DNA from: Escherichia coli
Lineage (GTDB): Bacteria > Pseudomonadota > Gammaproteobacteria > Enterobacterales > Enterobacteriaceae
Assembly: GCF_041886205.1 (NCBI RefSeq)
Contig: NZ_CP169029.1
DNA: 64,000 nucleotides
Strand: one strand, 5' to 3'
Shown here piece after piece: positions 19,818-24,745 of this stretch (position 1 is its first letter; every line of letters begins with the position of its first letter). Position numbers: made by a program.

Positions 19818-22800
19818 TAAGTTCACTAAAAAACAGAACGGGGCCAAAGGGTCCCGTTTTTTTTCGCCATCATTTCGGAAAAGTGTCCAGAAGGGGCAAG
19901 GGGACTCGGGGAGTATAATTTCGCCATTCAGAAAGAATGGAAAGAATAATGCAAAACAGAAAATGGATTTTGACCTCGCTGGTAATGACTTTTTTCGGCA
20001 TCCCCATACTGACGCAATTTTTGGCAGCGGTTGTTGCTATGCTGGGGGGCGGGCTTGCCGCTATTCTTGAGGTTTGCAATTTACTCTTTACGCCAGCAAT
20101 TTATCTTCTACTCAACGTCTTTATGCTGACTCTGGGGGCGATAATAATATTTTTCTCTGGTCGCGTGTGGGCGGGCGATAGTGCACCAGAAAAAAAAGAA
20201 ATAGCCGTCTGGCGACAATGTCTTTTTTTAGTACCTGCTTTATTCACCCTGGTTGGCTGGATAATCACGCTACATCTGGCAGATTATCAATTTCGCCAGA
20301 TGGGAGACGGTTGGTTGGCAAACCTTATGCTTCCCTGGTTGGGCATTTTTTTAGTCTCATTAGTGGGTGGTGAGTACTGGTGGATAGTCATTATACCCGT
20401 TGGCGCGCATATCAGTTTTTCGCTGGGGTACGGTTGGCCGACCAGACATCTTTTAACGGGCACGTCCGGGTTACGTTGCCGTAATTCCCTCTTGTTTATC
20501 CTTCTCATGCTTGGTTTTGTCGCCGGTTACCAGGCTTATTTATATAAACAGCTTAATCCCGGCGTCGGTGTCCGCGAAAATATTGATACCTGGGCCTGGC
20601 GACCCGATAAACTCAATAATCAACTGACACCATTACGTGGTAAACCGCAAATTCAGTTTACGCAAAACTGGCCGCGACTCGATGGTGCTACGGCGGCGTA
20701 CCCAATTTATGCCTCTGCCTTTTATGCGTTGAGCGTTATACCGGAAGATTTTCACACCAGGGAATATCTGGAGAACTCTCATACCCCCGATGCATATAAC
20801 AGGATTGTTAAAGGTGATGCCGATATTATTTTTGTGGCGCAACCCTCCGGTAGGCAGAAAAAACGCGCTGAGGAATCGGGCGTCACTTTGCTATACACGC
20901 CATTTGCCCGTGAAGCATTCGTTTTCATCGTCAATGCGGATAATCCGGTTAATTCCCTGACTGAACAACAGGTGCGTGACATCTTCAGTGGTGCAATTAC
21001 CAACTGGCGTACTGTTGGCGGTAACGATCAGGAGATCCAGACCTGGCAACGCCCGGAAGACTCTGGCAGCCAGACGGTGATGCAATCACAGGTCATGAAA
21101 AATGTCCGCATGATCTCGCCGCAGGAAACAGAAGTGGCAAGTATGATGGAGGGAATGATTAAAGTCGTTGCCGAATACCATAATACAAAGAACTCAATTG
21201 GCTACACCTTCCGCTATTACGCCACGCAAATGAACGCTGACAAGAATATCAAATTGTTAGCGATTAACGGTATTGCACCCACTGCGGAAAATATCCGTAA
21301 CGGCAAATATCCGTATATCGTCGAGGCATTTATGGTAACGCGGGAAAATATGACCTCAGAAACACAAAAATTGGTGGAGTGGTTTTTAACGCCGCAGGGG
21401 CAGAGCCTGGTGGAAGATGTAGGTTATGTGCCGATGTATAAGACGCTACCTTAAGCAGGATAATCATATGGATACCGGTATTATTCACCTGAACGCGGCG
21501 AATGTTCGTTTTGTTTATCAACCATTTACACGCGACCAGCGGAAGAGGGGGTAATTATGCAACCCAGCCCCGCCATGCAGGCATTAATTGAGCAGATTTA
21601 TTATATTTTTCGTCGTTATCCTGTGCCATCGAGATTTCATGTTTGTTGTCCTTACTGTTTTAGCGAAGAACAACAACAAGCCTTAAGAGGGGTTTCACTG
21701 CGTGCCATACCTTTTCCTTTATTACATGCCTGGGGAACAAGTATTGGCCCTAACCCACAAAATGATGATGAGATTCGCTATTTATTACCCAGATTGTTTG
21801 AATTAATTGCCCAAAGGCAATTTCCAGGCATTTATGAAGGCTGCTGTTTACAGAGAATAGCAGAGGCAGATAACCAGAACTGGCGAAGGGATGAACTACA
21901 AATAATTAGCGATTTCGCCTATTTATATATGCAGGATTGGGTGTCGGCTAAGGAAGTCGTGGAACTGGAAATAATATTAGAAATGTTTTATCGCGGTGGT
22001 ATAAAGATTGAACCCTTACTTGACTCTATTATGTCCATTTCCGGTTACTGGCCGACGGCGTCTATGGCATGTTTGCTCTGGCGTAACAGTAAAGAATACG
22101 TCGAAAATAGCGATTTTGAGCAGAGTGATGATAATAAAACTATTACCACCCAAATCAATACTTGGGCTAGAAACAATCATCCTTTGCTGAAAGAAAGAGC
22201 GCGGCAAGCGATTGAGAACCCACTAAAACAGCCCGAACCAATGACAGAATATCAAGTCTGGGAAGACGACTGGATGATTGATGAGTGTTTATGCGCGATG
22301 TATGACGCATCACCTGAACAATCAGGACAATAAAGATGAAGAAAATCAGACTTTATATTTATCCGCTATATCTCGGCTTTGTTATTGTGCCGTTGTTGGT
22401 ATGGCCGACGGTGGTTGCGCTGGTTGTTGTTGGTATCACACTGAGTTTTCTGATGGAGATGCTGTTCTCAAATTCGTTCATGCACAGGCGTATTTCCCTT
22501 CTGGAATTACAACTTGGGTTATTGGCTGAATATACGCTTTTGTTCTGCGCCATATGTTACGTTGGTTGGCAATTTGCTTCCAGAACTCAATCTGAATTGA
22601 AAAGCAGACTGCATTGTTGGTTGGTATTTGCACCAGTTTATTTCTGGTTGTTCCTGTGGGATATCATTTTCTATGTCGCGCCAGCGAAAATTACATTGCT
22701 GGAAAATATGCGCAGTTTCTTTCTGACCGTTGTCTGGCTCCCACTGAATTTTTCGCCATTTTGGCCTCAGCCGTGGACTGACTTTATCGGTCCGATAAGT

Positions 22801-24745
22801 GCACAGCTTGGGTTTGCGTTAGGATATTACTGCCATTGGCGCAGCAAAAATAGAAGCCAGAGGCTGAAGTGGGGGGAGTGGGGAACGTGCCTGAGTTTTG
22901 TTACGTTGGGTATGATGGCGTGGGCTTTACGGTAATTCTCTGACTCAAAAAGTAGGTCAGATTGTTGACAAAGTGCACTTTGTTCATGCCTGATGCGGCG
23001 TGAACGCCTTCTCAGGCCTACAAAATCATGCAAATTCAATACATTGCATAAACCACGCATCAGGCAATTTTGTGTTTATCATCAGTCTCAGGTCAGATTG
23101 AAATCTGACCCGGCCACCTTACGTTAAATTACGACGCCAGCGACAACTTCTGCTGCGTATACTCCACCAGCCATTGGCTAATGCGTGACTGCTGTTGCGC
23201 ATTCAGCCACATGCCTTGTTTTGTGCGACGCCACAGGGCATCGTCGGCGCGGCGGACCCATTCGTGATCCACCAGGTATTTCAGTTCCGCTTCGTAGAAC
23301 TCATGACCGAAATCCTCCCCGAGGTCGCTTACCGTCCCCGCATTGCCGAGCAGCAGCTCGCTGTTGCTGCCGTAAGTGCGTGCGTAATGACGCGCCAGCG
23401 ATTCGGTCAGGAACGGGTAACGGCGGCGCAGGCGGGCGGCGTAGTCATCGCGGTCGCCCTCGATGGCACCACCCGGCAGCACGCTCTCTTTCGTCCACGC
23501 CGGGCCAATGCCCTGATAATACGGCGTCAGTTTTTCCAGCGCATGTTCCGCCAGTTTGCGGTAGGTGGTCAGCTTACCGCCGAATACCGACAGCAGCGGT
23601 GCTTTGCCGTTTTCATCATGGATATCAAGGGTGTAATCACGGGTAATGGCTTGCGGCGAGTCGGACTCATCATCACACAGCGGACGCACACCGGAGTAGG
23701 TCCAGACGATATCGTCACGGCTTAGCTGCTTTTTAAAGTGCGCGTTATACACTTTCAGCAGGTAGTTGATTTCACTCTCTTCAATCTTCACCGCTTTTGG
23801 ATCGCCTTTGTATTCCACATCGGTGGTGCCGATGATGGAAAACTCGTCCATCCACGGGATCACGAACACAATACGTTTATCTTCGTTTTGCAGAATGTAG
23901 GCTTGCTTCTGGGTATGCACGCGTGGCACCACAATATGGCTGCCTTTGATCAGGCGAATGCCATAAGGCGAAGGCAGGTGCATCCCGTCGTCGAAGAACT
24001 GCTTCACCCACGGGCCGGTAGCATTAACCAGGCCGCGCGCCTGCCATGTATATTTTTTGCCGGTATCGATATCTTCCGCTTCCACAATCCACAGGCCGTT
24101 TTCGCGGCGAGCAGAGGTGGCGCGAGTCCGAGTAAGCACTTCGCCGCCTTTACGCACCACCATCTGGGCGTTGGCGAGTACCAGACGGGCGTCGTCTACC
24201 CAACAGTCAGAATATTCGAATCCGCGCTTAATTTCCGGTTTTAACACTGAGTTTGCGCCAAAACGCAAACCGGTTGATCCCGGCAGGCTGGTGCGTTTAC
24301 CCAGATGATCGTACATAAACAGACCAATGCGAATCATCCACGCCGGGCGCAGATGCGGACGATGCGGCAGGCGAAAACGCATCGGGAAGGCGATATGAGG
24401 GGCCATTTTCAGTAGCACTTCACGTTCAGCCAGCGCCTCGCTGACCAGGCGGAATTCATAGTGCTCAAGGTAGCGCAGGCCACCGTGAATGAGTTTTGAA
24501 CTGGCGGAGGAGGTCGCGCAAGCGAGATCCTGCGCCTCCAGCATCAGCACGGATAAACCGCGTCCAGCGGCGTCTGCCGCGATACCAGCACCATTGATGC
24601 CGCCCCCTATCACAATCAGATCTTTGGTTTCCATGCTGCCCTCATTCACTTTCGTTAAAGCTCATAAATGTTCGTTATCGAACATATTAGCAAAGAATCG
24701 CGCTTTAGGTAACATTGAAAAAACATTTTAGAGTGATATGTATAA

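Follow-up and report, generated by a model that had tools for sequence, protein, structure and literature searches.

Described systems against which the genes reported here can be set include the substrate-binding protein PstS (PF12849; TIGR02136), the fusions of substrate-binding and transmembrane domains (SBD-TMD) of some ATP-binding cassette (ABC) importers, the TRAP and TTT secondary transporters that depend on a substrate-binding protein, and the orphan immunity-gene arrays of polymorphic toxin systems. The accessory genes of Rtc RNA-repair operons offer a further comparison: in Pseudomonas aeruginosa an SPFH gene (PaFlo8) is embedded in the rtc locus (PMC13086221), and RlaP is found in rtc operons (PMC12776372). 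We analysed a window of 64,000 nucleotides of Escherichia coli DNA (contig NZ_CP169029.1, assembly GCF_041886205.1) in which three genes, here called P1, P2 and P3, lie between glgP and glpD (Table 1). The locus is already catalogued as O-island 133 (O157:H7 EDL933) and as 'Hotspot A (glp-glg region)', and its place in K-12 is held by the pseudogene yzgL, which is transcribed and whose expression falls 2-fold when Cpx is induced (PMC2731931). Both the locus and its variability are thus on record, and its proteins are uncharacterised; the sources on O-island 133, 'Hotspot A' and yzgL assign no function and do not mention the relationships found here. Unlike those entries the window carries a different, rare allele, and in O157 the place of P2 is taken by a second PstS-like gene. 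As far as could be checked, the evolutionary reconstruction of the locus, the probable paralogy of P1 and P3 and the link of P2 relatives to RtcB operons are new. We are highly confident of the descriptive part of this work, namely the gene structure, the homologies, the polymorphism and its history, the purifying selection and the RtcB linkage of P2 relatives.

In Escherichia the gap between glgP and glpD is filled by a strain-variable locus, of which the block is a rare allele. Among 5,426 complete E. coli genomes, with a gene counted as present at 80% coverage or more, P1 occurs in 3,347, the P2-P3 pair in 2,949 and an additional YbbD-like gene in 2,326, while the window's own allele is found in 36. 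The junction is a polymorphic slot with multiple gene-content forms, and most E. coli carry some version of it. The common form consists of P1, the YbbD-like gene (236 aa), P2' (255 aa) and P3' (201 aa) with spacers of 2-15 nt; the window P2 and P3 are only 63-66% identical to it. The window and strain SaT040 share the form P1, P2, P3. O157:H7 carries P1, a second PstS-like lipoprotein and P3. In the uropathogenic E. coli (UPEC) strain Combat2C1 a seven-gene chaperone-usher fimbrial operon replaces P1 and is followed by the YbbD-like gene, P2 and P3. A tandem-paralogue form (locus L004, on a contig that begins within the YbbD-like gene) has the 3' part of that gene, two P2 paralogues of 262 and 267 aa, and P3. 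The ankyrin form combines the fimbrial operon, a divergent P1, an ankyrin protein and a 144-aa Zn-ribbon protein, with no P3. Finally, K-12 has a deletion and only the pseudogene yzgL.

The pseudogene gives the history of the K-12 form. In it the initial ~235 nt of P1 are fused to the final 65 nt of P3, which makes it the scar of a deletion, so that K-12 lacks the block through loss and not because this strain gained it. That K-12 strains carry only yzgL, and that the block is accessory with respect to K-12, agrees with the preliminary description of this DNA, made from the sequence alone; the K-12-type scar is present in about a quarter of the genomes. A second deletion accounts for the window. 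Between P1 and P2 lies a stump whose start context and last 21 codons match the YbbD-like gene in alignment and whose stop keeps the 2-nt distance to P2, from which it follows that an internal deletion turned the four-gene form into the three-gene one. As start context, stop and gap are all kept, translational coupling from the stump into P2 may be preserved. SaT040 carries a similar stump (L014 7634-7735), and in many genomes the match to the YbbD-like gene is limited to its bases 639-711. The NCBIfam YbbD model itself matches only residues 7-49 of the YbbD-like protein (22.6 bits; cut-off 373). Between its glgP and glpD Superficieibacter electus has P1 fragments and a 150-aa chimera of YbbD-like, P2 and P3 pieces, a decayed remnant which indicates that the four-gene block predates Escherichia or was shared with that genus. 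The slot of S. electus also contains a 142-aa secreted protein (L022 8578-9006) with about six T-[YF]-R-D-x-x-G-H-x-x-G repeats and no family match.

What lies between P1 and P3 behaves like a set of cassettes that can be exchanged. In O157 the second PstS-like gene (L012 4259-5251) has the lipoprotein signal LLLGTALLAGC and a binding domain 58% identical to that of P1. Its C-terminus, EASPESSGQ, resembles the C-terminus DASPEQSGQ of P2, and so a cassette exchange seems to have occurred just upstream of the P3 start. At L004 1451-2254 we found a P2 allele 98% identical to that of the window which ends in a Ser-Glu-Ser repeat, DASSESSESSESSESSGQ, where the window has DASPEQSGQ; a short tandem repeat seems to lie at the 3' end of this gene, immediately ahead of the P3 start. 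Tandem P2 paralogues also occur in L008, L029 and L095, the tandem pairs measure 262 + 267 aa and 262 + 261 aa, and allele classes are 37-98% identical. A fimbrial operon stands at the P1 position beside glgP in some strains (L109, Combat2C1, 3452-10607; L023/L024 1-6310), which makes the glgP-glpD gap a general insertion or replacement hotspot.

We next consider P2, the member of the block with relatives far outside Escherichia. It has no hydrophobic segment and matches no Pfam, NCBIfam, PADLOC or PHROG family. Its AlphaFold2 (AF2) model (predicted local distance difference test, pLDDT, 88.8; 13 helices) suggests a cytoplasmic all-alpha helical-repeat protein with an N-terminal C-x3-C loop. 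An exhaustive profile search at E<=1e-3 placed it in a family of 1,664 representative clusters; the AFDB matches, none of them characterised, are spread over many phyla. Members carry the signature A-Y-x-x-F-x-x-Y ... C-x3-C ... E-x-[KR]-Y-F-L-P-R-x-L-E-L, and only C30, C34, P78 and E113 are invariant. P2 had been described as a soluble, Cys-rich protein of no assignable family. Soluble it is, and no family model matches it, although it can now be placed in this very large unnamed family; 'Cys-rich' overstates the case, because just two of its eight Cys (C30 and C34) are invariant. A mobile origin of P2 was considered and rejected: P2 is absent from phages, and the plasmid records proved to be a mislabelled 4.8-Mb chromosome and two weak partial matches.

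The P2 family is very large and unnamed, and some of its members are encoded within RtcB RNA-repair operons. We scanned genomes with an alignment of the P2 subfamily and inspected 80 loci of P2 relatives, most of which have heterogeneous neighbours. The sole recurrent neighbour is RtcB, directly adjacent and on the same strand in 8 of the 80 loci (Acidovorax, Roseateles, a proteobacterial metagenome-assembled genome (MAG), a Verrucomicrobia MAG and four Flavobacteriia). Chance adjacency would be about 0.1% by a rough estimate that assumes 1-2 rtcB per several thousand genes and is not a computed control. An independent collection added four rtcB-adjacent loci, with the gene orders P2, 140-aa gene, RtcB, RlaP, RlaP; P2, RtcB, DUF5677; P2, RtcB, RtcA; and SPFH tail, P2, RtcB. 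This brings the direct neighbourhood of rtcB and P2 relatives to at least 12 loci in several phyla. An SPFH/HflK-like gene is found nearby on the same strand in six loci and directly upstream of P2 in L064, L067 and L071. The fullest arrangement is that of Acidovorax kalamii (L064 3477-12956), where rtcR diverges from genes for SPFH, P2, RtcB, RlaP, a MoxR AAA protein and a vWA/DUF2201 metallopeptidase protein. Its RtcR scores 825 bits with NF038308 (cut-off 650) and its RtcB is 67% identical to that of E. coli, and we regard this operon as a good model system for the P2 family. Like Rtc accessory genes, P2 homologues of 24-35% identity thus lie between SPFH and rtcB with a divergent rtcR in Burkholderiales, and others stand beside rtcB/rlaP in Flavobacteriia, Verrucomicrobia and metagenomes. 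In two flavobacterial loci (L091 and L102, ~5000-11200) a P2-like gene lies between two divergent RtcB paralogues followed by two RlaP genes, and L091 has an SPFH-like gene upstream as well.

The relation between these proteins and P2 of E. coli was assessed by similarity. A profile built from Escherichia sequences only scores 1e-30 against the Acidovorax protein of L064 and 9e-30 against that of L067, and BLAST of the window P2 against RtcB-linked proteins gives 24-28% identity with E values of 1e-12 to 1e-13. In a neighbour-joining (NJ) tree, which is crude and carries no support values, the proteobacterial RtcB-linked clade neighbours the Escherichia clade, and RtcB-linked members occupy three other places. 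The window has a complete rtc locus of its own (Table 1), with the P2 end 4.4 kb from rtcR and P2 6.2 kb from rtcB.

The three ORFs are real genes under purifying selection. For P1, P2 and P3 respectively dN/dS is 0.13-0.21, 0.14-0.33 and 0.21-0.38, and dS between allele classes is 0.27-0.38, 1.7-2.0 and 0.8-0.9; for the flanking glgP and glpD dN/dS is 0.01-0.05 and dS 0.09-0.23. The alleles are thus much older than the surrounding chromosome, which is consistent with polymorphism balanced over a long time or with alleles imported repeatedly. Most strains have the genes intact and subject to purifying selection, and no housekeeping function has been assigned to them, so that neither of the findings named beforehand as able to overturn the reading as an accessory block was made. 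These data also bear on the idea that the block is a decaying remnant without present function, the leftovers of an old insertion heading to the K-12 state. Deletion in about a quarter of the genomes, truncation or frameshift of the locus in some others, the decayed remnant in Superficieibacter, the YbbD-like gene that is already a stump in the window and the weak expression of the O157 homologue would all suit such a course. Yet all three window genes are intact, dN/dS stays at 0.13-0.38 across classes with saturated synonymous sites, start, stop and 2-nt coupling distances are kept even around the stump, and over half of the 5,426 genomes have copies that are nearly complete (>=80% coverage). 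We therefore regard decay as most improbable.

The depth of the allele classes raises another possibility, namely that the genes 3' of P1 form a conflict or immunity islet of orphan protective genes kept polymorphic by frequency-dependent selection. P3 would then give protection from a toxin that acts on the membrane, and P2 from one in the cytoplasm that possibly targets RNA. The dS values of P2 and P3 against ~0.1-0.2 in the flanks would be expected of it, as would the presence/absence polymorphism, the swaps of the middle slot (YbbD-like gene, tandem P2 paralogues, second PstS-like gene, or ankyrin plus 144-aa Zn-ribbon protein) and the sporadic spread of P2 across phyla with variable neighbours. 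RtcB systems are thought to answer RNase toxins, which also counts in its favour. The likeness to orphan immunity-gene arrays is accordingly broad: the cassettes vary between strains, divergent paralogues stand in tandem, the allele classes are ancient, and the variable slot holds ankyrin or helical-repeat proteins. Unlike such arrays, however, no form of the locus contains a toxin gene or domain, and none of the proteins, P2, P3 and the YbbD-like protein included, belongs by its matches to an immunity or defence family of Pfam, PADLOC or NCBIfam. Neither the 109 same-strand neighbours of P2 relatives at the 80 loci nor a clustering of 963 neighbouring ORFs revealed a recurring toxin or immunity family. 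Overall dN/dS below 0.4 gives no gene-level positive selection, and the absence of P2 from plasmids and phages also speaks against it. A toxin-immunity locus, suggested at first sight by the 'YbbD family' label, the tandem paralogues and the ankyrin cassette, was accordingly kept as a rival only, and we consider it unlikely. A known anti-phage defence system was also rejected, PADLOC-DB 2.0 giving no match at E<=0.1 for six proteins from two locus forms, and PHROGs returned only a generic phosphate-binding match.

P1 is a membrane-tethered PstS-like protein, as had been read from the sequence. Residues ~1-205 form a conserved multi-helix hydrophobic membrane domain by hydropathy, which was found in Escherichia only in a word-indexed search and matches no family, and residues 250-485 match PBP_like_2 (PF12849) at E 2.1e-29 over model positions 16-265 of 267. 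The C-terminal 260 residues share the PstS fold by sequence: the top-matching PDB entries are solved PstS proteins (E 4e-18), the R-x-x-D-S-G-S/T motif falls in register, and the C-lobe R-P-E-D-S-G-S of P1 aligns with S-R-E-D-G-S-G-T of a solved PstS. A positive loop precedes the last helix, and for this reason the binding domain is probably periplasmic. It differs from PstS in staying below the family cut-off of TIGR02136 (122.6 bits over residues 284-500 only, cut-off 206.6; the O157 paralogue reaches 119.1 bits), in its ~200-residue polytopic anchor and in having no partner permease or ATPase genes. We also found no signal peptide or lipobox anchor in P1, a lipobox (LLAGC) being present only in the second O157 copy.

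One could suppose that P1 and the second O157 lipoprotein simply deliver phosphate or a related anion to a PstCAB transporter encoded elsewhere, with P2 and P3 as unrelated passengers. The name given to P1 by PGAP ('PstS family phosphate ABC transporter substrate-binding protein'), its PF12849 and TIGR02136 similarity, the match to solved PstS with the C-lobe R-x-x-D-SGS kept and the PHROG match 'phosphate transporter subunit' all point that way. The TIGR02136 score, by contrast, lies well under its cut-off, and no form of the locus has pstC/pstA permease or pstB ATPase genes nearby, the neighbours being glgP and glpD. The tether of P1 is a conserved multi-helix membrane domain and not a signal peptide or lipid anchor, and docking on PstC/PstA is hard to reconcile with a binding domain held in this way. 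P3, moreover, is an apparent paralogue of the P1 membrane domain, and P3 or P1 is kept in nearly every locus form. A supplier of PstCAB is therefore very unlikely in our view.

P3, described earlier simply as a membrane protein, is a polytopic inner-membrane protein that was found in Escherichia only in our family search and has no Pfam or NCBIfam match. Its helices and a conserved motif (G-P-I-S-A-Q-L-G-F-A-L-G-Y-Y vs P-V-G-A-H-I-S-F-S-L-G-Y-G) are collinear with the membrane domain of P1. Comparison of P3 and P1 with hhalign aligned 158 collinear columns at E 9e-4 with a probability of 23%. A divergent P1 allele (L023) bridges the two proteins, with BLAST identities of 31-32% over 85-87 aa and a P3 profile score of 14.8 bits that was reached by 1 of 1000 hydropathy-preserving local shuffles. 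P3 is thus a probable, though not proven, paralogue of the P1 membrane domain. A binding domain carried covalently on a polytopic membrane domain, with a related second membrane subunit in the operon, recalls the SBD-TMD, TRAP and TTT systems; unlike these the block has no ATPase, and the membrane domains of P1 and P3 match no Pfam or NCBIfam transporter family.

The three genes form an intact co-directional operon, and the features of the block and its surroundings are collected in Table 1.

Table 1. Coordinates in the window of the block, its flanks and the rtc locus
Feature	Position	Strand	Description and basis
glgP	17373-19820		flanking gene
glgP (glg operon) intrinsic terminator	19835-19868	+	11-bp hairpin (19835-19860), then U8
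TATAAT hexamer	19914-19919	+	27 nt before P1 start; without good -35; read from sequence
P1	19937-21454	+	longest ORF, 505 aa; NCBI start at 19946 gives 502 aa
YbbD-like stump	21468-21554	+	28-codon mini-ORF, MDTGIIHLNAANVRFVYQPFTRDQRKRG then stop; translation, alignment with 3' end of the L002 gene and with SaT040
P2	21557-22333	+	258 aa; ORF call
P3	22336-22935	+	199 aa; ORF call; 2 nt between P2 stop codon and P3 start
REP element, single	22988-23021	+	3' of P3; differs from the REP pattern at 1 position; chance expectation 0
10-bp hairpin	23089-23112	-	directly 3' of glpD stop; -16.1 kcal/mol, z = -2.9
glpD	23129-24649	-	flanking gene, convergent
rtcR	26782-28380	-	complete
Sigma-54 consensus	28515-28530		TGGCACGACGGTTGCA; known promoter; perfect match, the only one
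rtcB	28567-29793		complete
rtcA	29794-30813		complete

ORF calls returned the three same-strand ORFs where the preliminary description had placed them, and it was also right in seeing a glg operon terminator, an AT-rich block and no standard transporter operon. The glgP terminator, whose hairpin folds at -17.2 kcal/mol (z = -3.18; 1 of 200 shuffles equally stable), is the upstream boundary of the block; the hairpin after glpD is likely its terminator and the downstream boundary. The G+C content is 45.1% in the block and 41.7% in P2, compared with 52.1% in the window, 51.2% in glgP and 56.4% in glpD, and no ABC permease or ATPase genes lie within or adjoining the block. P2 and P3 are near-contiguous as had been noted, with a gap of 2 nt; the same spacing separates the stump from P2. 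Where REP/BIME (repetitive extragenic palindromic/bacterial interspersed mosaic) elements had been expected, a single REP unit (-19 kcal/mol, z = -3.8) is indeed present, and a second inverted copy that would make a BIME pair was not found downstream of P3. An Rfam scan of 19500-23400 gave no RNA family at threshold (naRNA4 28.6 bits, cut-off 59.5). The P1-P2 spacer and the P2-P3 junction hold no terminator-like sites, and the three such sites that were found fall inside P1 and P3, a number not above the 4.2 expected by chance. The TATAAT hexamer is a possible -10 element of an operon promoter, and a promoter scan yielded weak sites only, in a number not above chance. The block region is 100% identical to that of E. 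coli strain wlxctx60 from a Japanese black bear, in which NCBI annotates the same three genes.

How might the block work? We picture P1 and P3 as inner-membrane proteins, probably associated, with P1 binding a phosphate-like anion on the periplasmic side. P2 would be made in step with P3 through translational coupling and act as a cytoplasmic partner. The block is not an ABC importer, and the role of P2 would more likely concern how RNA damage or translation stress is dealt with at the membrane than the uptake of nutrients. We favour such a role over uptake because relatives of P2 are built into RtcR-controlled SPFH-P2-RtcB(-RlaP/RtcA) operons. We infer the association of P1 with P3 and of P2 with P3, the ligand, and the link of the E. 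coli proteins to Rtc, and as a whole this mechanism is doubtful. Our best overall explanation, a strain-variable membrane-protein operon with an RNA-stress-linked cytoplasmic partner, is a tentative one that we hold with somewhat less than even confidence.

Several observations weigh against it. About 70 of the 80 loci of P2 relatives are not beside rtcB, and neither are the nearest non-enterobacterial relatives examined. Unlike Rtc operon genes, the window P2 belongs to a different transcription unit, flanked by membrane proteins and not by SPFH or RtcB, and glpD, glpE, glpG and glpR stand between the block and rtcR. Control of the block by RtcR and sigma-54 was considered and rejected, as neither P1 nor P2 is preceded by a sigma-54 consensus. 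In SaT040 (L014 12818-13604) rtcR and rtcA are truncated and rtcB is gone while P1-P2-P3 is intact, so that the E. coli genes do not need Rtc, and the proximity of block and rtc may be a vestige or a coincidence. As to the membrane proteins, the N-lobe anion-binding residues of P1 appear diverged from what we take to be the PstS motifs, the P3 profile scores a marginal 4.5 bits with the window P1 (reached by 54 of 1000 local shuffles), and the AF2 model of P3 (pLDDT 45.8) is unusable as a fold. The locus forms themselves add to this: UPEC combines YbbD-like, P2 and P3 with P1 replaced by the fimbrial operon, O157 has P1 and P3 without P2, and the ankyrin form without P3 counts against an obligatory three-part machine. 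With variants lacking P1, P2 or P3, no pair of the three is obligatory.

A bolder version of the tentative RNA-stress explanation leads us to speculate that P2-type proteins are an unrecognised, widespread component of Rtc RNA repair, acting at the membrane with SPFH. The glgP-glpD operon would then be an offshoot that couples this cytoplasmic module to a novel type of membrane receptor, a PstS-like domain on a scaffold of two paralogues, linking an extracellular anion signal to the handling of RNA damage or translation stress. We regard this as distinctly unlikely.

Taken together our results explain yzgL as what a deletion left of an operon still present in most E. coli, and show that the genes of a catalogued and unexplained O-island are under selection and fall into allele classes of unusual age. 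A membrane-tethered PstS-like protein with what is probably a paralogous small partner is an architecture unmatched by the described transporter and sensor families searched. For a family of more than 1,600 representative clusters without a Pfam or NCBIfam model, the RtcB neighbourhood provides a first functional lead. If the link between P2 and RtcB is functional, P2 would be a testable new player in the Rtc pathway, whose bacterial substrates and cofactors remain debated.

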